A stretch of 64,000 bases of DNA, taken from an uncultured Chloroflexia bacterium (lineage in GTDB: Bacteria; Chloroflexota; Limnocylindria; Limnocylindrales; CSP1-4). Location of the stretch: NCBI GenBank assembly GCA_963772995.1, contig CAVYZQ010000013.1, forward strand, positions 78,866-142,865, given 5' to 3'. The notes beneath the pieces were generated by a model. The model searched no databases and was not told the origin of the DNA. It was given only the letters and a program-made list of their open reading frames with translations. Position numbers and translations under genes: made by a program. Each line of letters starts with the position of its first letter. The stretch's first letter is position 1. Below, one piece after another: positions 38,771 to 49,767 of the stretch.

Positions 38771-40529
38771 TCACTGGCTGACGGTGACGTTCCGTGCGTC
38801 GATGAAGTAGACCGGATGGAGAGGATTGACGCCACCGACGCGAGTCGATGACATGACGACGGTCTCGTTGAGCACGACCGGGATCCATGGGGCGTCCGCC
38901 ATGATCTTCTTCTGGATGTCCTGGTACATCGACAGGCGAGTCGCATCATCCTGCTCGGCGAGCGCCTTCGCGGACTCCGCGTCGACCTCCTTGTTGCAGT
39001 ACCACGCGGAGTTCGAGCCACCCTTCACCGCGGTGGCGCACGACAGGATCGGGTCGATGAAGTCGGATGGGTCCGGGAAGTCCTGGAACCAGCCGACGTA
39101 CACCAGTGGCGCCTGGTGCGGGGTCTGGATCGTGCCGAGCAGGACGCTGAACTCCTGCTGGACGATGTCGACGGTGATTCCGATCTGGGCGAGGTCCTGC
39201 TGGACCGCTTCGGCCTGCGCTTTGACGGTGTCGTCGGTGTACGTGTAGAGCGTGGTCTTGAATCCGGCCTCGTAACCGGCTTCCTTCATCAGCGCCTTGG
39301 CCTTGTCGACATCATGCGGATATGGATCGCAGGACTTGTCGTAGCCGGGCATGGGCGGCGGCAGGATGCACGTCGCCGGGCCGCCGCGACCGTTCTGGAT
39401 CCGAACCAGGTTGGCCTTGTCCACCGCGTAGTTCATGGCCTGGCGAACCTTGACGTTGGCGAGTGCCTTGTCGGGTCCACTGGTGTCGATGGATACGTAG
39501 AAGGTTGCCACATCGGTCCGGCGCAGGACCCTGTCCTTGAAGTTCGGGTCGTTGACCGCCGCGGTGAAGGACCCGCCCGGGATCGGATCGCTCATCAGGT
39601 CGAGCTGGTTGGCCTCGGTCTGCTGGAGCTGCGTGTTGGCATCGAGCCCGATGCGGATCTCGACGCCGGCGTTGGCGGGTGCGCTGCCCCAGTAGTCCGC
39701 GTTCTGCTCGAACCGGGCGATCGAGCCCTGCTTGTACTCGACCAGGTGGTACGGCCCGGTCCCGATCGGTGCCTTGGCGAACTCCGTCGCATCCAGGGGC
39801 GATTCGGCCGGGATGACCGAGCCGAACATCATGGCCAGGATGTAGGGCAGGCGCTTGTCAGGCTTCGTGAGGGTGATCTCGACCGTCGCGGGATCGGTCG
39901 CCTTGATCCCCGAGGCGGTCTTGGCGGTGCCGCCGAGGACCGCAGCCGAACCATCGATGATGGAGAAGAACGCCGGACCCACCGGTGACGGGTTCGGCTT
40001 CAGGCCCTGGTCGAGGATCCGATTGAGCGACGCGACGACGTCGTTCGCGTTCATCTCCCGGAGCACGGACCCGTCGCCCTTGTAGAACTTCACGCCGGAC
40101 CGGAGGTGGAACGTGTAGGTCCGCCCGTCCGCGGAGACCGTGGGCATCTCCTTGCGCCAGCCCCGGCACGAGCTTGGTGGTGGTGGCGTCGTATTCGACG
40201 AGCTGGTCATAGAGCAGACGGGCGGCCATCCACGACACCGTGTCATAGGCCAGTGCCGGATCGAACCACTGGATGTCGCCCTGCGATCCGATGGACAGGA
40301 TCCCTCCCCCGGATGCGCTGCTCGGACTGGCCGCCACGCTGGCTTCGGCGGAGGCGGACGCCGCGGCCTGCGTGGCCGGCGGGCTCGTCGGCGTGGCAGC
40401 GGATGCGGATGCTGCTGCCGAGCTCGGTGGCGCAGCCGAGGGGCTGGCACTCGTGCATGACCCGACGACGATCGCGAGGCACGTGATGGCGACCACCCAC
40501 CACGGCCCACGGCGGACTGTGCCGTCCAT
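38771..40529 (-). CDS. Family 5 ABC substrate-binding lipoprotein (frameshift near 40155)
   Basis: Lipobox-like VVGSC, Ser/Ala/Pro linker, FDPALAYD, PIGTGPY, VRQAMNYAVD, WFQDFPDP. Confidence 0.9.
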
Positions 40530-40733
40530 CGCTGGACCCTCCTGCCGAACGGCGCCGTTGATGATGGATACGGCCACCGACGCCGATTCGCGCGAACCTA
40601 TCACGGCGTCATCCGGAGTGACCGCTTGCGCGCGGACGATCGCCGGGCGCCACCTGTTTTTGTGGTGCGCTCTGTCAACACCGGACGCATCTCGTGACGA
40701 AGCCGCGAAGATCTCCGCACCCCGCGGCGAACC

Positions 40734-41699
40734 TCAATTTCTCCAGGCGCGCGGGTCGAGGGCGTCGCGGAGCGCGTCGCCCAGGATGTTGAACGCCAGG
40801 ACCGTGAGCGTGATGGCCAGTCCGGGGAGCACGACGAGCCGTGGATCCGTCGCGAACCAGCTGATGTGGTCGGCGAGCATCGTCCCCCACGTGGGAGTCG
40901 GCGGCGGAACACCGGCGCCCAGGTACGACAAGGTCGCCTCGAACAGCACGGTGGCAGCGATCCCCAGCGAGGCGTAGACCACCAGGATCGGCAGGATGTG
41001 TGGCATCACGTGGTCGAGGAAGATCCTCAGGCCGCGACTGCCGAGCGCCCGTGACGCCTCCACGAAGTCGCTGTTCCGCAGGACGAGCGTCCGGCTGTAC
41101 ACGATCCGTGCCGTGGCAGTCCACAGCGTCGTGCCGATGATGATCGTGACGAGGCCGATGCTCGGACCCAGCACGTACGCCATCGTGATCGTCAGGAGCA
41201 GGACCGGGAACGAGAGCCACAGGTCCGTGGACCGCATGAGCAGGCTCTCGACCGGGACCCCGACCGACCGCCCGCCCGGCAGGCCGAGGCGCGCAGAACG
41301 CGACAGCGCCGCCGTTGCCCCGACGAGGAGCCCGAGCACGGTGGCGATCACGTTGGCCCCGATCCCGATGGCGAGCGATGTGCGCGCCCCGTAGACCAGT
41401 CGAGTCCAGTAGTCGCGGCCGAGGCGGTCCAGCCCCAGCGGATGTTGCGGGCTGGGCCCTGCCGGGTCGCCGGTCAGCGGCATCGCGTCCCGGAACTGCT
41501 GGATCGGGTCGTACGGGGTGAGGAGCGGCGCAAGGATGGCAGCGAGCACGATCGCCGCGGCGAGGACGCCACCGACCCAGAACATCGGGTTCCGGCTGAG
41601 GGTCTCCAGGGCTCGCCGGGCGCCACCGACGGGCCGTCGGCCGGCGTCGAGCACCGCCGTCCTCTCGGTCGCGGTGCCGGGCTCGACAAGCTGCGCCAT
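40734..41699 (-). CDS. Peptide ABC transporter permease (DppC-like)
   Basis: HPLGLDRLGRD...YGARTSL, FVEASRALG, EATLSYLG, PTWG, FNILGDALRDALDP. Confidence 0.9.
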   Translation of the reverse strand: MAQLVEPGTATERTAVLDAGRRPVGGARRALETLSRNPMFWVGGVLAAAIVLAAILAPLLTPYDPIQQFRDAMPLTGDPAGPSPQHPLGLDRLGRDYWTRLVYGARTSLAIGIGANVIATVLGLLVGATAALSRSARLGLPGGRSVGVPVESLLMRSTDLWLSFPVLLLTITMAYVLGPSIGLVTIIIGTTLWTATARIVYSRTLVLRNSDFVEASRALGSRGLRIFLDHVMPHILPILVVYASLGIAATVLFEATLSYLGAGVPPPTPTWGTMLADHISWFATDPRLVVLPGLAITLTVLAFNILGDALRDALDPRAWRN

Positions 41700-41754
41700 T
41701 GCACCGCAGCGTATCGGGCGGCGCAAGATGCTTATCGCACACGGCGGCAGGCGA

Positions 41755-41823
41755 CCTGTCCGAAACCCGACACCTCGCCAGTCCGGCACGAGCCACAGGT
41801 GACAAACAGCCGACATGTACGAT
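41755..41823 (+). promoter_or_regulatory. Putative activator site(s) plus -10 box (TACGAT) for the repeat-peptide gene
   Basis: CCTGTCCGAAACCCGACACCTCGCCAGTCCGGCACGAGC matches 43975-44013 at 29/39 positions; -10 box 63 bp downstream. Confidence 0.65.
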
Positions 41824-41852
41824 CGCGGTCCATATCAGCAGAAGGAGATCCG

Positions 41853-42227
41853 ATGGGCGAGCACAAGCCCGGCGAATACAACATGCCGGAAGAGTCGGAC
41901 ACCGAAGGGCAGCTGAAGCGGCGCGACGTCACCGACGAGGGTGGGTCGGGCGGCGGCGAGGATCTCAAGCGGCGCGACATCGTCGACGAGGAGTCGGACA
42001 CCGAAGGCCAGCTGAAGCGGCGCGACATGACCGGCGACGCCCCCTCGAGCGGCGAGGATCTGCGTCGGCGTGACGCGACCGACGACGAGGAATCGGACAC
42101 CGAGGGCCAGCTCAAGCGGCGCGACGTCACCGACGAGGGTGGGTCGAGCGGCGGCGAGGATCTCAGGCGACGCGACATCGTCGACGACGAATCGGACACC
42201 GAGGGCCAGCTGAAGCGGCGCGACTGA
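41853..42227 (+). CDS. 124-aa acidic tandem-repeat protein; putative multi-copy peptide precursor
   Basis: SD GAAGGAG; 4x ESDTEGQLKRRD alternating with 3x GEDL(K/R)RRD; synonymous variation between repeats. Confidence 0.85.
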   Translation: MGEHKPGEYNMPEESDTEGQLKRRDVTDEGGSGGGEDLKRRDIVDEESDTEGQLKRRDMTGDAPSSGEDLRRRDATDDEESDTEGQLKRRDVTDEGGSSGGEDLRRRDIVDDESDTEGQLKRRD

Positions 42228-42238
42228 CGTACACGCCC

Positions 42239-42274
42239 GCGGTGACGCCTCGTCCTCCTCTGGGGCGTCACCGC
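42239..42274 (+). terminator. GC-rich stem-loop after the precursor gene (no U tract; pause or stability element)
   Basis: GCGGTGACGCCTC...GGGGCGTCACCGC, a 13-bp stem. Confidence 0.55.
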
Positions 42275-42303
42275 CACCTCCGCGGTCGGCGGCCGAAGGC
42301 GTC

Positions 42304-43966
42304 GTGCTGACCGCGTATCGTCGCGTCTTCGGAAACCCGTGGCTCGCCCGCTTGATGGCGGGCGAGTTCATCTCGTCCATCGGCGACTGGCTGTACATGG
42401 TCGGCATGCTGATCGTGGTCTACGACCAGTCCGACGATCCGCTGGCGCTCGGGCTGGTCGGGGCGGCACGCATCGCGCCGTACGTCCTCTTCTCGGTGCC
42501 GGCGGGGATCGTCGCGGACCGGTTCGACCGGCGAACTATCCTCCTCACCACCGACATCATCCGCGGCGGCCTGCAGGTCGTCCTTGCGATCCTCGTGCTG
42601 AACGCCGCGCCGACCATCTGGATCGTCGCCGTGGCGATGGTCGCCACGAGCGTGGCGGTCTTCTTCGGACCAGCGATCGGGGCTTATCTCCCCTCGCTCG
42701 TGGACGACGAGGCCGATCTCGGACCGGCGAATAGCGTGTGGGCCACGCTCGACAACCTTGCCTACTTCATCGGGCCGGCCGTCGCCGGTCTACTGATCGC
42801 CGCCGGGGGCCTGGTCGCCTCGTTCATCCTGAATGCGGCCTCCTTCGCCGTCGTCGCGGTGATCCTGGCGACGCTCCCCGCCAAGCGCACGGCAGCCGGC
42901 CCGACCGAGCTCGACTCCCGGGGCGCTGGCGAACGGTCGGGCGCACAGGCGAACGGCCCGCGCTCTGCCGCGGGCGGCTGGGCGACGATCGTCGGCCGGA
43001 TGCCGGCCGTGATGCTCCTCGACGCCGCGACGAGCTTCGTCGGTGGCGGCCTCGGGGTGCTGACGGTCATCGTGGCCGTCAATTCGCTGGGTGTCGGAGA
43101 GGCCGGGACCGGCTACCTCAACGCCGCGATCGGGGTGGGCGGGATCGCGGCCGGGATCGTCGCGGGCTGGGTCGTGCTGCGACGGCTCGACGTCGGGATC
43201 GTCGTGGGCAGCCTCATCTGCGGCGCCGGCCTGATCGCACTGGGCCTCGCGGCGGATCTCCTCCTCGCCTCGGTGGCGATCGCCATCGCGGCCGGCGCAC
43301 AGCTCGTGCTCGACGTGATCAACGCGACGCTGCTCCAGCGAACGGTTCCCGACGGGGAGCGCGGACGAGCGATGGGCGTCCTCCAGATCTCGAGCGCCCT
43401 GACCGCGATCGTCGGCGCATTCGCGGCCCCGCTCCTCGCAGATGCCTACGGCGTCCCGGCGGCGCTGGCGACGATCGCGGTCATCGGGACGGTCGTCGGG
43501 GTGGCCTCGGGGGCATGGCTGCGCTCTGCGGCCCGGCATCCTGCCCACCGCATCCGAGCCGCGCGCCCTGGAGATCCTTCGGGGCAGCGTCTTCGGCGGC
43601 CTGCTTCCGGCCAGGCTCGAGGCGGTCGCGAGGGACCTCGTCCCGGTCGATGTCGCCCAGGGCGAGACGATCATCGAGGAGGGCGACGCCGCGGATCGCT
43701 TCTACTTCGTCGATCGCGGGACGTTCAGGGTCTCGCAACGAGCCGCCGATGGCGGAGTGACCGTCCTGCGGTCGTTGGGTCCGGGTGAGACATTCGGCGA
43801 GATCGGGCTGCTGACGTCGGTGCCGCGAACGGCGACCGTGACGGCCGAGTCGGAGGGACGTCTCTTCGCGCTCGACCGCGCCGGGTTCCTGGGACTCGTC
43901 GATGCCGGGCCGGGCCTGACCACCCAATTGCTCGAGCGATACCGGGCTCTGCCCGTGCGCGCCTAG
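42304..43966 (+). CDS. MFS transporter fused to a C-terminal cyclic-nucleotide-binding domain (frameshift near 43530)
   Basis: GIVADRFDRR motif A and about 12 hydrophobic segments, then IIEEGDAADRFYFVDRG...GETFGEIGLLTSVPRTATV. Confidence 0.85.
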
Positions 43967-43974
43967 ACACAGCG

Positions 43975-44043
43975 CCTGTCCGATACCGGACGCCCGGCGC
44001 GTCCGCCATGGGCTGTAGATTTCCGAGGAAAAGGGCCTAATCT
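43975..44043 (+). promoter_or_regulatory. Second copy of the putative activator site(s) plus -10 box (TAATCT)
   Basis: CCTGTCCGATACCGGACGCCCGGCGCGTCCGCCATGGGC; -10 box 63 bp downstream, as at 41755. Confidence 0.65.
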
Positions 44044-44088
44044 GCCGCATGGTCCCCAGCGCGAGGGATCGATGTGAGGAGAGGTCAC

Positions 44089-44283
44089 ATGAACGCACAG
44101 GACGTGCCCGACGAGCTGCTCGGTCCCGAGACCGAGATCGACGAGACCGCAGGCGACGCCGGCAGGGCGCCGGCGCACCGGAACGTCTCGCCTGCCCCGA
44201 CGGCTGACGACGACACGCAAGGACAGGGCGGCAAGGTCTTCGCCGTCGATCGATCCGACGCAGAGGACGCCGGGCGCCCGTAG
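44089..44283 (+). CDS. 64-aa acidic peptide with a DDDTQGQ motif
   Basis: SD GAGGAGAGG before the ATG; motif resembles ESDTEGQ of the 41853 protein. Confidence 0.7.
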   Translation: MNAQDVPDELLGPETEIDETAGDAGRAPAHRNVSPAPTADDDTQGQGGKVFAVDRSDAEDAGRP

Positions 44284-44401
44284 CCTGTCAGGCCAGCGAG
44301 CGTCACCGGCTGCGCGGCTGCCTCGACCAGCCAGTCACCGGGCCATACACTCCAGCCACGCATCCGGAATCACCGGATCGGCTGGTGAGGTCTCGAACTG
44401 C

Positions 44402-45127
44402 ATGCCCGACCGCGAGGCAGCCGCCCCGGCGTCCGCCCAGGACCGCGCGGTCATCGAGGCCATCTCGCGGTCGCGTCTGTTCCGCGGCGTCGCGATCGAG
44501 GACCTCGCCGTCATCGCCCCGATGCTCCGCGAGCGCCGGTACCGGTCGGGCGAGACGATCTTCCACGAGGGGGACCCGGGCGACGCGATGCACGTCATCG
44601 CCTCGGGTGGGGCGAAGATCTCCATCGCATCCCAGGAAGGCGACGAGGCGATCCTCGCAACCCTCGGCCCGGGAGAGGTATTCGGCGAGCTCGTCCTTCT
44701 CGACGGCGCGCCACGTTCCGCGACGGCGGTGGCGGTCGAGCCGACGGTGACCTATACCCTCCCCCAGACTGCGTTCGGCCCGCTCATCGCCGGGAATGAC
44801 GCGTTCCGGACGGCAGTCCTTCGCAACCTCGCGCTCGAGCTGCGTCGCCTCACCGCGCATGCCTCCGAGCTGCACTTCCTCGACCTCCCGGGCAGGCTGG
44901 CCAGCCGGCTGGCCCGGATGGCGGAGGACGTGGCACCCGGCCAGCCCCTGGAGGTGCACCTCGGCCGCGGCTACACCCAATCGGAGCTGGCGGCGATGAT
45001 CGGGGGCACACGCCAGAGCGTGAATCGGGTGATGTCGGAGCTCGTCTCGGAGGGACTCGTTAGGCTCGAGCCACACGACCTCGTCGTCGTCGACGTCCGT
45101 CGGATGGCCGAACGCGCTCGATGGTGA
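44402..45127 (+). CDS. Crp/Fnr family transcriptional regulator
   Basis: IFHEGDPGD, FGELVLLDGAPRSATA, HTH TQSELAAMIGGTRQSVNR. Confidence 0.93.
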   Translation: MPDREAAAPASAQDRAVIEAISRSRLFRGVAIEDLAVIAPMLRERRYRSGETIFHEGDPGDAMHVIASGGAKISIASQEGDEAILATLGPGEVFGELVLLDGAPRSATAVAVEPTVTYTLPQTAFGPLIAGNDAFRTAVLRNLALELRRLTAHASELHFLDLPGRLASRLARMAEDVAPGQPLEVHLGRGYTQSELAAMIGGTRQSVNRVMSELVSEGLVRLEPHDLVVVDVRRMAERARW

Positions 45128-45936
45128 AGGACGGCCGGCCGCGCGATCTTTCCGCGGACGCGGGCGCACTCCTGCGCCAGGTCGCCCTCCGGAGCGAGAC
45201 CGCGGTGCGCCTCGAGACCGAGGTCGAGATCACCCTCCTGCGCTCGATCGTCGATGCGACCGTCGGCATCTTCGCCGCCGAAGCCGCGTCGATCGCTCTG
45301 CTCGACGAAGCGACAGGCCAGTTGCGGTTCGTGGTGGCGGCGGGCGCCCAGGGCCAGCCGGTGGTCGGCCTCACGATCGGGGCGACGCAGGGTGTCGCGG
45401 GCTACGTGTTCTCGACGGGCGAGAGCATCGCGATGACCGATCCGGTGCAGGACCCGCGTTTCGGCCGCGAGGTGGCGGAGCAGACCGGTTACGTCCCGCG
45501 GTCCATCCTCGCCGTGCCGCTCGAAGACGGGTCGCGGACGATCGGGGTGCTCGAGGTCTTCGACAAGCGCGCCGGCCCGTTCACGATGCAGGACATCGAG
45601 ATCGCCTCGGTCTTCGCCAGGCAGGCCGCGACCGCGATCAAGGTGGCCGCGCGGACACGCCAGGTGCGCTCGATCCTGACCGACGCGCTGCGCGCCGAGG
45701 CCACCACCGAGGGCGACGCGGACGCCGATGCGGCGGTCGCCGAGGTCGTCTCGGTCGCGACCGTGCGGCAGTCCGGCGACGACCGCTTCTGGGCCTTCGT
45801 CGATGCGATCGCGGCGATGCGCCAGGTTTCGGCAGCCGACCGTGATCTCGCGATCGACCTGCTCTCGGTCATCGGCCGCCACCGCGCTCCTGCCACACGC
45901 GAAGCGGCGAGGGGGCTGGGCCGAGCCCGCCGGTGA
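45121..45936 (+). CDS. GAF-domain protein with no recognisable output domain
   Basis: ASIALLDE..LRFVVAAG, GVAGYVF, DPRF..EVAEQTGYVPRSILAVPL, GPFT..D. Confidence 0.85.
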   Translation: MVKDGRPRDLSADAGALLRQVALRSETAVRLETEVEITLLRSIVDATVGIFAAEAASIALLDEATGQLRFVVAAGAQGQPVVGLTIGATQGVAGYVFSTGESIAMTDPVQDPRFGREVAEQTGYVPRSILAVPLEDGSRTIGVLEVFDKRAGPFTMQDIEIASVFARQAATAIKVAARTRQVRSILTDALRAEATTEGDADADAAVAEVVSVATVRQSGDDRFWAFVDAIAAMRQVSAADRDLAIDLLSVIGRHRAPATREAARGLGRARR

Positions 45937-46795
45937 GCGAGGAATCGCTCCCGGCGTGGAGTGAGCCGTTCACCGCCGACCGCCGAGGGGATCTCAGCCG
46001 CCGCGGACCGTTCGCCGACACGGACATGCCCCTCGACTGGCGAGAGGCGGACGGCCGAGGGGTCACGGTGGCGATCATCAATTCGGGCGTCGACGGAGAC
46101 CACCCCGCGGTCGGCGGCCGGCTGGTTCGGAGCCTGCGGGTGGAGCTCTCGCCCGACGACGGCGAGGTCATCGACGACCCGGACGGCGGCGACGTCCTGG
46201 GTCACGGCACGGCCTGCGCGGGGATCATCCATTCGCTGGCACCCGCCGCCGAGATCGTCTCGATCCGCGTCCTCGGTCCCGACAACACGGGCAAGGGACG
46301 AGCCTTCGCCCATGCCCTCGACTGGGTCGTGGAACAGCGGATCCCCGTCGCCAACCTCAGCCTCTCGTCGCGCAGCGAGGCCCTCTACGGGACGTTCCAC
46401 GACCTCGTCGACCAGGCCTATTTCGCCAACTGCCTGCTGGTCTGCTCGGCGAGCAATACGCCGGGGCAGGAGAGCTATCCGTCGCTGTTCTCCTCGGTCG
46501 TGTCGGTCGCCGCGCACGACATCCCGGATCCGACGACGTACTTCTACAACCCGCGATCCGCCCGGTCGAGTTCGGCGCGTGGGGAGTGGCCGTGCCGGTC
46601 GCGTGGAGCCAGCGAGGTTCGATCGTGGCGACCGGCAACAGCTTCGCGGCGCCCCACATCTCGGGCCTTCTTGCGCGCCTCCGCTCGACCTACCCCGATG
46701 CGACCCCGTTCGAAGCGAAGACGATGCTGGCGTTCGGGGCATCCACGCCGATGCGCGATGGGCGACCGGGTCGGCCGGACATCAGCCGGCGGTGA
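45933..46795 (+). CDS. S8 (subtilisin-like) serine peptidase with no signal peptide (frameshift near 46560)
   Basis: VAII(N)SGVD, GHGTACAG, NLSL, TGNSFAAPHISG. Confidence 0.85.
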
Positions 46796-47291
46796 GCGTC
46801 CGGCCCTCGTATGCCTCCATCGCGCGATGTGCTCGGCTGACAGCGGGACCGGCCGCGCGGCCGCGTAGTCGTACCGGACGAGGACCGAATCGCTGACGGC
46901 GACGAGCCGGGGCTCCCCACCGGGCGCCGAAGCCGTCAGGCGATGCTCGAGGTGGAACGACGTCCGCCCGACCTTGGTCGCGCGCGTCTCGACGGTCACG
47001 GTCTCGCCGTAGAAGGCTGGGGCCCGGTAGGTGATGCGGGCTTCGGCAAGGATGAGGCTTTCGAGGCCGCGTGCTGCGATGGTCGATCGGCACGCCGGTC
47101 ACATCGGTCCAGTACTTGATGCGGGCGATCTCGCAGTAGGTCAGGTAGGTGGCGTTGTTGACGTGGCCCATGGCGTCGGTGTCCGCGAACCGGACCTCGA
47201 TGGTCACGCGGTGGTTGAACGGCCCCGTGAGGTCGCGCGGATCGACCGGCGTCGGCGTCGGCGTCGGGGTCGGGTCGGCGGGAGGCTGCAT
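46782..47291 (-). CDS. Acyl-CoA thioesterase (hot-dog fold; frameshifted)
   Basis: VRFADTDAMGHVNNATYLTYCEIAR, KVGRTSF. Confidence 0.85.
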   Translation of the reverse strand: MQPPADPTPTPTPTPVDPRDLTGPFNHRVTIEVRFADTDAMGHVNNATYLTYCEIARIKYWTDVTGVPIDHRSTRPRKPHPCRSPHHLPGPSLLRRDRDRRDARDQGRADVVPPRASPDGFGARWGAPARRRQRFGPRPVRLRGRAAGPAVSRAHRAMEAYEGRTLTAG

Positions 47292-47356
47292 CGCGACGAA
47301 TGGTACCCACGGGTCGGGGGCGGCGGAGGCGTGCGGCGCCGCGTGCGATCGCGAGG

Positions 47357-49767
47357 TCAGCGAGGAGCCAGCCCGCTCGCGGGCGCATCGAGCGCTGCAT
47401 TCGGCCGCCGCCGCGGCGCGTCGGGGCTGGCGTCGAACCCACGAAGGCGAAGCGAGTTCGCGACCACCGACACGGACGACAGCGCCATCGCAGCCGCGGC
47501 GAGCCCGGATTGAGCGTGATCCCGAACATCGGATAGAGCACGCCCATCGCGACCGGGATCAGCACGATGTTGTAGGCGAACGCCCAGAACAGGTTCTGGC
47601 GGATGACCGACATCGTGGCACGCGAGAGCCCGATCGCGGCGGCGACGGCCCGCGGGTCGCCCCCGACGAGGGTCACGTCAGATGCCTCCACGGCGACGTC
47701 GGCGCCGGTTCCGATGGCGACCCCGAGGTCGGCCGCGGCCAGGGCGGGGGCGTCGTTGATGCCGTCGCCGACCATGGCGACCACGTGTCCCGTCGAACGC
47801 AGCTTCTCGATCAGGGCGGCCTTGTCGGCCGGACGCGCTTCGGCGCGGACTCGCTCCGACGGGATCCCGACCCGGGACGCGACGGCCTCCGCGGTCGCGG
47901 GGCCATCGCCGGTAAGGAGCCAGACCTCGATACCCGCGTCGATCGAGGGCACGGACCGCGGCGGCGGATTCCGTCCTCACCGGGTCGCCGATGGCGACGA
48001 GGCCTGCGGCCGCGCCATCGATGGCGACGTAGGAGGTCGTTCGGCCGGCGGCCGCGGACTCCGCTGCCGCGTCCGAGAGCGGCGCTCAGGTCGACACCGA
48101 GGTCCGCCATCAGCCGTGCGTCGCCGATGGCGACAGTTCGCTCTCGCCCGGTCTCGTCCGCGACGCGCCCGGTCACGCCGGCCCCCGCGATCGCGGCGAA
48201 GTCGGATACGTCTCCCGAACCCGAGCTCGTCCTCGCGCGCCCTGGCGAGGATCGCGGCACCGAGCGGGTGCTCGCTTCCCTTCTCGAGGGCGCCGGCCGC
48301 GTCGAGGACCTCGCCGACGGACCATCCCGGTGCCGCGATCACGCTTTCGACCACGGGGCGTCCAAGCGTGAGCGTGCCCGTCTTGTCCATGACGACGGCG
48401 CTGACGCGGTGAGCGGTCTCGAGCGCCTCGCCGCCACGGATGAGGATGCCGGCCTCCGCGCCACGCCCCGTGCCGACCATGATCGCGGTCGGCGTCGCGA
48501 GACCCATCGCGCACGGGCAGGCGATGACGAGGACGCTGACGAATGCGGTCAGCGCGTACGTGAACTGCGGCTCCGGACCGCCGGCGAACCACAGCACAAA
48601 CGTCGCCGACGCGACGATCAGGACGATCGGGACGAAGACCTCGCGCGATCCGGTCGGCAAGGCGCTGGATGGGCGCCTTCGAGCCTTGCGCACGACTGAC
48701 GAGCTCGACGATGCGAGCGAGCGCCGTGTCGCGCCCGACACGCGTGGCGCGCATGACGAACGTCCCGGTCGTGTTGAGCGTCGCCCCGATGACCTCGTCA
48801 CCCAGCGCCACGACGACCGGATAGGCTCGCCGGTCAGCATCGAGGCGTCGATGGCCGAGCCCCCGTCCACGACGATCGCCGTCGACCGGGACCCGCTCGC
48901 CCGGGCGGACGCGCAGCAGCGTCCCGACCGTCACGGCCTCGAGCGCCACCTGGGCGTCGGCGCCCGTCGGGGCCTGCGCCCGCGACGTTGGCCGTCGTCG
49001 GGCTCAGGGCCATGAGCCTGCGGATCGCGCCCGGTCGTCCGGACCTTGGCGCGAGCCTCCAGCCAGCGACCCAGGAGGACGAGGCCGATGATGATCGTCG
49101 ACGAGTCGAAATAGGTCTCGGGCTTCATCCCGGCCGCGACGAACACGGCGGGCCAGAGCGCGACGAGGACGCTGTATCCCCACGCCGCGGACGTGCCGAC
49201 GGCCACCAGCGTGTCCATGTTGGTCGTGCCATGGCGTGCGGCGCGCCACGCCGCGCGATAGAAGCGACGGCCGGCCCAGACCTGGACGATCGTGGCCGGG
49301 ATGAGGATGATCCGGTTGAGCTCCACGAGACCGATAGCGGTCTGTGGCGAGAACATCGCGATCATGATCAGGAGGGCGGTGACGATCGAGACAGAGGCTT
49401 CGATCAGGAGCGTCCGGGACTCGTGCGCGCGGGCGGCGTCGTCGGCCGTGAACGCGTCGGCGAGCGCGGGCTGGTCGGTGCCTTCCGCCTCAGTCGCCGT
49501 CGCCTCGGTCGGGCCCTTTGGCCTCCGGCGGACGTCGTAGCCGGCCGATTCGATGGCTCCCACGAGCGCGCTGCGGTCGACGACCTCGGGCCGGTAGCGG
49601 ATCGTCGCCATCTCGGTCGCGAGATTGACGGTCGCACCCTCGACGCCCGGTGTCCTGACCAGGAATCGTTCGATGCGGTTCACGCACGACGCACAGGTCA
49701 TGCCCTCGATGGGCAGGGAGATCTCGGCGGGCGCTGAGGTGGTGTGGGGGTCGGGCTCATACTCCAT
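47357..49767 (-). CDS. copA: Cu(I)-type heavy-metal P1B ATPase (frameshifted; start 49767 or 49760)
   Basis: GMTCASC, MLTGEP, IACPCAMGLATP, DKTGTLT, SEHPL, MVGDGINDAPALA, YN and MALSS motifs. Confidence 0.88.

Follow-up and report, generated by a model that had tools for sequence, protein, structure and literature searches.

The subject of this report is a six-gene locus in the genome of an uncultured Chloroflexia bacterium (contig CAVYZQ010000013.1). The window, meaning the whole stretch of DNA that was analysed, is 64 kb long, and positions are counted within it. The locus encodes two small acidic proteins (pep1 and pep2), an MFS transporter with a C-terminal cyclic nucleotide monophosphate (cNMP)-binding domain, a Crp-family regulator, a GAF-domain protein, and a compact S8 subtilase. 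Its open reading frames (ORFs) and other features, with Pfam scores where a domain was matched, are as follows:

41757..41772, no strand: operator-like 16-bp palindrome TGTC-N8-GACA, its centre 88 nt before the pep1 start codon
41853..42227, + strand: pep1, a 124-aa acidic tandem-repeat small protein, recognized by its repeat, a Shine-Dalgarno sequence, and its GC content at third codon positions (GC3)
42239..42274, + strand: hairpin with a 14-bp stem directly 3' of the pep1 stop codon, a weak fold prediction
42304..43966, + strand: MFS transporter (EntS-like, MFS_3) with C-terminal cNMP-binding domain, assigned by Pfam, with one frame change
43977..43992, no strand: second operator-like palindrome, with one mismatch, its centre 104 nt before the pep2 start codon
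44089..44283, + strand: pep2, an acidic small protein of 64 aa that has one DDDTQGQ and follows a strong Shine-Dalgarno sequence
44344..44352, + strand: conserved CATACACTC element, about 50 nt ahead of the start codon of Crp
44402..45127, + strand: Crp-family regulator with a cNMP-binding domain (PF00027, 90.3 bits) and a helix-turn-helix domain (HTH_Crp_2, PF13545, 48.8 bits)
45121..45936, + strand: GAF protein of 271 aa (PF01590, 71 bits), its ends overlapping Crp and S8
45933..46795, + strand: compact S8 subtilase in two parts (PF00082, 69.1 and 26.8 bits, cut-off 21.8)

All six genes lie on one strand (+) between 41853 and 46795, as the initial annotation had described them. Both cNMP-binding domains that it had read are present, one following the MFS part (PF00027, 81 bits) and the other in Crp, and the start and stop codons overlap as it had stated, by 7 nt between Crp and GAF and by 4 nt between GAF and S8. 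The two overlaps are identical in the relative L016.

The conservation of this arrangement was followed in three samples, each defined by an orthologue of the S8 protease. In the near sample (E <= 4e-59, same-genus genomes, all 15 loci examined), the orthologue occurs in 15 of 24 genomes of the window's genus and in none of 16 genomes of a small-genome sister family. A GAF gene next to S8, an MFS gene, and a small ORF with the acidic motif are present in 15 of these 15 loci and Crp in 14; two of the small ORFs were found only by frame reading, one of them frame-shifted. The wide sample comprises the best 80 of at least 575 stretches, with one genome per species and 58-100% identity. Its taxon labels are nearly all Chloroflexota, uncultured Chloroflexia, or Candidatus Limnocylindrales or Limnocylindria metagenome-assembled genomes, and 5 of the 80 are labelled otherwise. 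In 77 of the 78 of these loci with enough flank, the gene immediately upstream of S8 is GAF, and in 71 of 75 a Crp gene on the same strand is no more than 2.6 kb away. Of the 54 full-flank loci, 52 have at least one acidic ORF with D[TV]xG[QH] no farther than 4.2 kb away (73 of 80 overall), against 7 of 523 bins of 8.4 kb by the same motif criterion in the window's own genome. Two or more such ORFs are found in 26 of the 54 full-flank loci, and 38 have an MFS gene together with a cNMP domain other than that of Crp. Homologous loci thus do carry small ORFs of this type and synteny is kept, two of the three points on which the initial annotation had been prepared to fall.

Gene order varies around this constant content. 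The commonest arrangement is a small ORF followed by Crp, GAF, and S8, facing a convergent MFS-cNMP gene that is followed by another small ORF. In the type A arrangement, to which the window belongs, all genes are co-oriented, and in a third the small ORF stands between Crp and GAF with no MFS gene nearby. Adjacency that is kept through such rearrangement points to a functional unit, and the comparison supports reading the locus as one. The only conserved neighbours are Crp, GAF, S8, MFS-cNMP and, in part, a P-type ATPase.

The third sample covered 401 Chloroflexota genomes (S8 orthologue at E <= 1e-40), with 18 distant loci examined. The orthologue is present in 45 genomes, including one flagged as unpublished (G184), with a patchy spread over several families, and GAF stands beside S8 in 18 of the 18 distant loci. 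Small proteins of the tailed type described below occur in 3 of the 401 genomes; all 3 are among the 45 that bear S8, and in 2 the gene is within 2.5 kb of it. By gene content and order, the locus can be placed as a derived type A member of a cluster that is conserved throughout Ca. Limnocylindrales and partly present in other Chloroflexota. In the window's own family, the S8 orthologue was found in 5 of 23 sampled genomes; the other 18 are 91-97% complete, which argues that the module is accessory and patchy rather than core.

The small ORFs share an upstream DNA motif, as the initial annotation had noticed, in the form of the 16-bp palindromes at 41757-41772 and 43977-43992. TGTCC-N6-GGACA with at most 1 mismatch has only 2 matches in the 64-kb window, both before small ORFs; the count equals chance expectation (mean 2.36), and it is the placement at 88 and 104 nt before start codons that is non-chance. 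In an alignment of upstream regions, the first site is conserved in 7 type A relatives, and the position of the second is occupied by an operator in four (L030, L032, L035, and L043). The perfect form TGTCC-N6-GGACA matched in no relative's locus because the right half-site of the relatives differs by one base. The shared core TGTC-N8-GACA has 67 exact matches in the 0.96 Mb of wide-sample loci versus 22 in the whole 4.2-Mb genome. Small ORFs were predicted with 200 nt of sequence upstream in 90 cases; within that distance, 52 of the 90 carry an exact site and 88 a site with at most 1 mismatch, at about 109 nt upstream. A stretch of 200 nt in the genome at large holds 0.001 exact sites and 0.038 sites with at most 1 mismatch. 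Exact sites fall 96-133 nt before the start codon in 49 of the 52 cases; of the two ORFs that lack a site, one comes second in a tandem pair of genes.

The locus Crp has the features of the CRP/FNR family, namely a cNMP-binding domain and a C-terminal Crp-type helix-turn-helix, and scores 128-131 bits to the solved CRP-family regulators 3r6s, 3d0s, and 3i54, which we take to be actinobacterial cAMP receptors. The operator described here shares the 5-6-5 geometry of the classical CRP site, TGTGA-N6-TCACA, and departs from it at the fourth base. R-Q stands in the recognition helix of 74 of 74 locus Crps, and the nearest solved CRPs have R-E at the aligned position. In E. coli CAP, the recognition-helix Glu contacts the very base that differs here; carrying this contact over to the locus Crp is an inference. 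On the strength of gene adjacency and the R-Q helix, Crp probably binds the palindrome and controls the small ORFs through it. The locus thereby resembles the cAMP-CRP regulons of actinobacteria in its two-domain regulator and 16-bp 5-6-5 palindrome, and differs from them in its half-site, TGTC(N) rather than TGTGA, and in R-Q rather than R-E. This Crp is probably dedicated to a small local gene set rather than global. The genome holds one paralogue of it (G000:C7:143435-144109, - strand), which is 49% identical, has the same R-Q helix, and lies about 1.5 kb from a cyclase-domain gene (C7:145647-146150).

Two further elements lie near the regulator gene. The CATACACTC element is present in the window and in 9 type A loci, with one changed or missing base in two, and may be a -10-like element of a second promoter for Crp-GAF-S8. 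An inverted repeat, TGTGA-N7-TCACA, at 44073-44089 brackets the pep2 Shine-Dalgarno sequence and reaches the start codon; the hairpin predicted for it (-8.2 kcal/mol) is no better than those of shuffled sequences.

The pep1 protein consists of four ESDTEGQLKRRD units alternating with three G-E-D-L-(K/R)-R-R-D units, with a period of 33 aa or 99 nt. As first noted, both small ORFs are acidic and share D-T-(E/Q)-G-Q, in four copies in pep1 and one in pep2. Several features mark both as real genes. Each is preceded by a Shine-Dalgarno sequence; GC3 is of coding type (0.89 in pep1, 0.84 in pep2), with third positions high and second positions (GC2) low in GC as in neighbouring genes; and in the four 33-nt cores of pep1 all 3 variable bases are synonymous third positions. 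The motif is also rare, since [DE].D[TV][EQA]G[QH] has 16 matches in the six-frame translation of the 4.2-Mb genome, 5 of them in pep1 and pep2. A third motif site in this genome (C11) was set aside; it lies antisense to another gene and has no operator. Neither pep1 nor pep2 belongs to a Pfam or NCBIfam family, the only match being one of a repeat to Cornifin below the cut-off, and no signal peptide was read in the small proteins.

The relatives of these proteins fall into several architectures. Type A proteins, those of the window's clade, contain 2 to more than 10 units such as DEDDTEGQKFQRTATP and lack a tail. Class U proteins, encoded upstream of Crp, have 1-12 units, each a spacer with (D/E)DDVEGH, and then a conserved tail of about 45 residues that is helical and basic. 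Class D proteins, encoded after MFS-cNMP, have 1-5 motifs and a conserved end ...S-(R/K)-G-(E/D), which in the window's genus becomes an internal ...G-G-E with an extension. Single-motif versions of 63-79 aa also exist. In one subclade (8 of 38 loci), a 66-90-aa D-T-(S/T/M)-G-H protein is encoded upstream of MFS, with the operator in all 8. A larger protein of about 221 aa was seen at L069:13376-14041 (- strand) and also at L046, L048, L051, L053, L054, L056, and L128. It carries an N-terminal D-T-S-G-H and D-V-E-G-H, one predicted transmembrane helix, and then Pro/Ala-rich repeats, and has the palindrome upstream. No Pfam family matched this motif-bearing membrane protein, which in its subclade is apparently a further member of the regulon.

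A logo of 289 unique units gives the consensus (D/E)(E/D)(D/E)-D-[V 66%/T 34%]-E 96%-G-[H 80%/Q 20%], followed by small and then hydrophobic residues, with basic residues on both flanks. The motif is strongly conserved; the spacers are species-specific yet near-identical within one gene. Tailless proteins stop 2-7 residues past the motif, at or no more than 2 residues from a basic residue, which suggests that the repeat units are bounded by basic residues. Two alignments of database relatives contained 707 and 635 proteins, all unnamed or labelled hypothetical and without a Pfam domain; the few with a taxon name are from Ca. Limnocylindrales. A protein atlas queried with a class U protein returned one weak match (0.78), to an unnamed Chloroflexota cluster.

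The GAF protein is the constant partner of the protease. A profile built from 22 locus proteins was compared with the PDB, where the twelve best matches score 123-84 bits. The top match is the GAF domain of an HD-GYP phosphodiesterase (123 bits), and the other eleven are GAF domains of an adenylate cyclase and of cyclic-nucleotide phosphodiesterases, including the cAMP-binding cyanobacterial adenylate cyclase at 107, the cAMP-bound GAF of Lcd1 at 101, and PDE5, PDE2A, and PDE10A at 84-90; the heme-binding GAFs of DevS reach 43 bits. The AlphaFold model has a mean predicted local distance difference test score of 81, and Foldseek ranks structures in the same way, with a cAMP-bound GAF at a template modelling score of 0.71 and a root-mean-square deviation of 2.5. 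A helical C-terminal region of about 90 aa has low model confidence. From profile and model together, it is reasonable to suppose that the locus GAF binds a cyclic nucleotide.

The cyclic-nucleotide theme of the initial annotation is strengthened on several sides: Crp is nearest to cAMP-type CRPs, the GAF profile scores highest with GAFs of the cNMP-binding type, an operator of CRP geometry precedes the small-protein genes, and the genome has cyclase matches in number. The annotation was also correct that no cyclase is visible. None lies on the window's contig, and all 28 matches of PF00211, 26 of them over the cut-off, are on other contigs. A 1280-aa cyclase-AAA/STAND-TPR protein is encoded beside Crp-GAF-S8 at L072:606-4445 (- strand) and at 7 other loci. 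This cyclase-STAND-TPR gene adjoins the locus in 8 of 51 cases by an ORF clustering that is noisy, with Pfam checked for one. A cyclase at the locus is therefore a property of some relatives in part of the window's genus only.

The MFS protein scores 117 bits to PF07690 and 77.1 to PF05977 (cut-off 27). Its score against the EntS equivalog NF007792 is 67.2 where the cut-off is 324, so it is a member of the MFS_3 family and not the enterobactin exporter itself.

The S8 protease is a compact subtilase, its intact orthologues being 271-279 aa long with D50, H91, N175, and S236 invariant in 9. It has the features of its family, with PF00082 over the cut-off, the Asp-His-Ser triad in order, and the oxyanion Asn, and it adds a conserved N-terminal P-A-W-S-E-P-F segment. 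Its nearest PDB sequences are intracellular subtilisins (ISPs), at 75 bits. It stays under every curated subfamily cut-off: mycosin TIGR03921 (109.2 against 278.75), QhpE NF049966 (105.1 against 165), and PatA/PatG TIGR03895 (29.4 against 421.05). Pfam finds PF00082 only and no P domain, and the orthologues end about 35 residues past the catalytic Ser; on reading, the protein has no signal peptide and no N-terminal hydrophobic segment. Conserved Lys/Arg residues occur in N-[KR]-G-[KG]-G and S-L-S-S-[KR]-S, which align with ISP segments. In subtilisins these segments line the substrate cleft, and basic residues near the cleft would fit an acidic substrate. A complex prediction of S8 with a 42-aa type A small protein gave a score of 0.01 and a mark of 0.32, was run without controls, and speaks neither for nor against binding.

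The closest subtilases in kind are ISPs and QhpE, a subtilase that cuts leader peptides. The locus S8 shares their compact cytoplasmic form, with ISPs as the best PDB match and QhpE among the best in NCBIfam, and differs in its own P-A-W-S-E-P-F segment, its unvarying GAF partner, and its scores below the family cut-offs. The kexin/furin analogy of the initial annotation is not supported. Kexins are S8B enzymes with a P domain that act in the secretory pathway, and the locus enzyme has no P domain, no N-terminal hydrophobic segment or signal peptide, and intracellular subtilisins as its nearest relatives. What remains of the likeness to Kex2/furin processing, as of yeast alpha-factor and fungal dikaritins, is that the repeats of the window's pep1 are separated by KRR/RRR. 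These dibasic sites are not conserved, being confined to the window's pep1 (KRRD); orthologous arrays have KFQR, FKAR, FNAR, or FVHQ instead.

The model proposed for these parts begins with one of the many class III cyclases of the genome, whose cNMP product would activate the locus Crp. Crp would then bind TGTC-N8-GACA, some 90-130 nt upstream of every gene for a small protein, and turn transcription on. With pep1 leading MFS-cNMP and pep2 leading Crp-GAF-S8 in the window, this would create positive feedback. The products would be acidic tandem repeats around (D/E)(D/E)(D/E)-D-[V/T]-E-G-[H/Q]. The cytoplasmic S8, translationally coupled to a cNMP-type GAF that probably gates it, would cut them into short acidic peptides, and the EntS-like MFS, gated by its own cNMP domain, would export these. 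Activation of Crp and induction of the small ORFs are the steps for which comparison lends strong support. Coupling of GAF to S8, cutting, and export are proposed from conserved adjacency, cytoplasmic location, and repeat architecture. We infer the binding of the palindrome by Crp, the cutting by S8 and its sites, the cargo of MFS, and the role of the peptides outside the cell. The chain from cNMP-Crp induction through GAF-S8 cutting to MFS export is put forward tentatively, at somewhat less than an even chance of being correct as a whole. A stronger version, that the system is prohormone-like, lies on the unlikely side. In it, a second-messenger-gated GAF-S8 dices precursors into many acidic peptide copies and a cNMP-gated MFS releases them, with one cyclic nucleotide for all steps, as a cell-to-cell or environmental signal or as a chelator.

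Several observations weigh against this chain. The usual cargo of EntS-type MFS transporters is small molecules rather than 16-residue peptides, and no MFS gene is nearby in 12 of 54 full-flank loci. The class U helical basic tail and the conserved class D C-terminus are commoner in a protein with a function of its own than in a precursor. Outside Limnocylindria, a motif ORF was found near GAF-S8 in only 7 of 18 distant loci; the search found none near the other 11 pairs, and its filter may miss divergent forms. No pep2 equivalent is present in 9 other type A loci examined. No conserved tailoring enzyme appears in the neighbourhood, as judged from an ORF clustering of the flanks that is noisy because of overlapping high-GC ORFs. 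None of the listed RNA runs contains 41700-46900. Finally, S8 and MFS-cNMP are frame-broken in the window, and the system could be inactive here if the breaks were real.

The main rival is an intracellular role, in which the small proteins are disordered acidic regulators or stress proteins under cNMP-Crp, GAF-S8 is a cNMP-dependent turnover protease, and MFS-cNMP carries an unrelated small molecule. Several observations speak for it: the absence of a signal peptide and of a tailoring enzyme, the conserved class U tail and class D C-terminus, the single-motif proteins of 63-79 aa, the 221-aa membrane protein with motif and operator in a subclade, and the 12 of 54 full loci that lack MFS. It accounts poorly for a repeat number that runs from 1 to at least 12, for units homogenised within a gene, and for species-specific spacers, which together form the pattern of a multi-copy precursor, and for an exporter gene directly before or after a small ORF in 38 of 54 loci. 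This explanation is rather unlikely.

Another explanation is that the window's copy is pseudogenised, with real mutations in S8 and MFS-cNMP and the locus decaying. Two of the six genes do change frame, and pep2 is peculiar to this genome among type A loci. The MFS and cNMP parts stand in different frames in this assembly, with the break at about 43508-43530, an interval that contains a run of five G. The S8 parts are separated at about 46556-46565, at a C run, and the GNSFAAP serine motif lies in the second frame. Both genes are unbroken in the orthologues L015, L016, L028, and L029, the MFS-cNMP protein of L016 having 548 aa and the S8 of relatives 275 aa, and more than 100 homologues combine PF05977, PF00027, and PF07690 in a single protein. 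Both halves of each broken gene keep coding-type GC3. A short-read contig from a relative with about 91% identity is missing one base at 43529, and this brings the MFS and cNMP parts into a single frame. It bears on the MFS break only, and none of the contigs reported spans the S8 break; other short-read contigs are identical to the assembly over parts of pep2 (44035-44185) and of Crp.

Frame breaks are dense over 42304-49767, where MFS-cNMP, S8, and a thioesterase have one each and a P1B-type ATPase is split into three ORFs (HMA; E1-E2; hydrolase). The breaks in the window are probably assembly indels, because genes within 8 kb are broken too, because the source genome scores 63% complete at 4.2 Mb in 39 contigs, and because the relative's contig lacks the base in question; decay of the locus is unlikely. 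Frame breaks of this density would affect any gene call in the source genome. The repeat arrays of L015/L033, L034, L036, L095, L102, and L103 also change frame midway, with the motif carrying on in the other frame. These changes are probably assembly error as well, and repeat counts from such genomes are thus lower bounds.

Metal handling is a further alternative. The Asp/Glu/His-rich repeats would serve as a cytoplasmic buffer or an exported ribosomal metallophore, together with a P1B-type ATPase and a siderophore-exporter-like MFS. In its favour, the motif ends in His in 80% of the 289 units, spacers are often His-rich (GHGH, GGH, HTHHG), and the MFS is a member of the EntS family. In 28 of 54 full-flank loci (for example L069:10933-13293) there is a CopA-like ATPase with an HMA domain, and one adjoins the window's locus at 46996-49767 on the - strand. 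The ATPase has no match in 18 distant loci, and its adjacency may reflect either a gene order handed down or a connection with metals. The window's clade has Gln for His and no His in its repeat units, and the regulators are cNMP sensors, not metal sensors, so that metal handling is improbable. Least probable by far are Pup/UBact-like tags, ligated through the C-terminal Glu of class D proteins with S8 exposing the end in extended versions: many class D proteins have the conserved ...S-(R/K)-G-E end, genus relatives have an internal ...G-G-E, and these ends resemble those of Pup and UBact, but the window's own genome (63% complete) has 0 matches to the Pup-ligase family PF03136 where a Corynebacterium control was positive, the one Pfam-scanned locus (L069) has no ligase gene, and pep1 and pep2 lack a (R/K)-G-(E/D) ending.

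Genes for an ABC peptide transporter of the Opp/Dpp type (SBP_bac_5; permease with OppC_N) lie at 38771-41816 on the - strand, divergent from pep1, and the first palindrome consequently sits in an intergenic region common to both. A peptide importer next to a putative peptide exporter is suggestive. In an alignment of upstream regions, type A relatives have another neighbour than these ABC genes. The hairpin at 42239..42274 may weakly be proposed as an attenuator between pep1 and the MFS gene; the fold energy of its 76-nt stretch is no better than that of shuffles (z -1.23). An Rfam scan of 41000-47500 matched no family. A sigma-70 scan gave 0 promoter-like sites and a terminator scan 1, inside the MFS gene, both as in shuffles.

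Among described systems, the proposed export-and-cutting chain has several partial counterparts. Cyanobactin clusters of the PatA/PatG kind are alike in their small tandem-unit precursor, in a conserved recognition motif with a variable part, and in an S8 protease within the cluster. The locus differs from them in lacking heterocyclase, macrocyclase, and DUF domains, in having cNMP sensors and MFS in place of pat genes, in its conserved acidic motif, in its occurrence in Chloroflexota, and in an S8 far below the TIGR03895 cut-off. Bacillus Phr/CSF peptides are likewise short products of small precursors released by subtilisin-family proteases, as the peptides of this locus would be, and an Opp/Dpp importer lies next door here. 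Phr precursors are exported by Sec and cut outside the cell by general proteases, whereas everything at this locus is cytoplasmic and dedicated, and the ABC neighbour is not conserved in relatives. The bacteriocin-export cNMP proteins of TIGR03896 also tie a cNMP-binding domain to peptide export; that family accompanies ABC-type exporters, not an MFS fusion, and the locus proteins score 38.7 and 26.6 where the cut-off is 161. The strict cluster feature of peptides that are made ribosomally and then modified post-translationally (RiPPs) is a precursor with a tailoring enzyme, and no tailoring enzyme was found near the locus. The locus resembles a peptide locus of precursor, protease, exporter, and regulator, and belongs neither to cyanobactins, nor to Kex2-type systems, nor to strict RiPP clusters.

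The initial annotation had not recognised the locus as a described system, and nothing found in the literature, as seen in listings and the beginnings of abstracts, or among database names describes it. As far as these sources go, the small-protein family, the operator, the R-Q Crp paralogue, the obligate GAF-S8 pair, and the triple use of cNMP sensors are undescribed. What is defined here is an unannotated family of repeat mini-proteins, a conserved operator, a dedicated Crp paralogue with an altered recognition helix, and a protease always accompanied by a cNMP-type GAF.

Ca. Limnocylindria is an uncultured group, relatives of the locus occur in many soil metagenome records, and the module is concrete, conserved, and testable. 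If the proposed chain is true, its parts could be tested in E. coli without culturing the source organism, and it would be the first case in bacteria in which a cyclic-nucleotide signal governs how ribosomal peptides are made, processed, and exported. Should the cleavage step prove wrong, the regulon of Crp, operator, and small proteins would remain new cAMP biology in Chloroflexota. If the prohormone-like version holds, it would amount to a signal or chelator system across an abundant uncultured soil lineage, built on an unrecognised small-protein family and operator.

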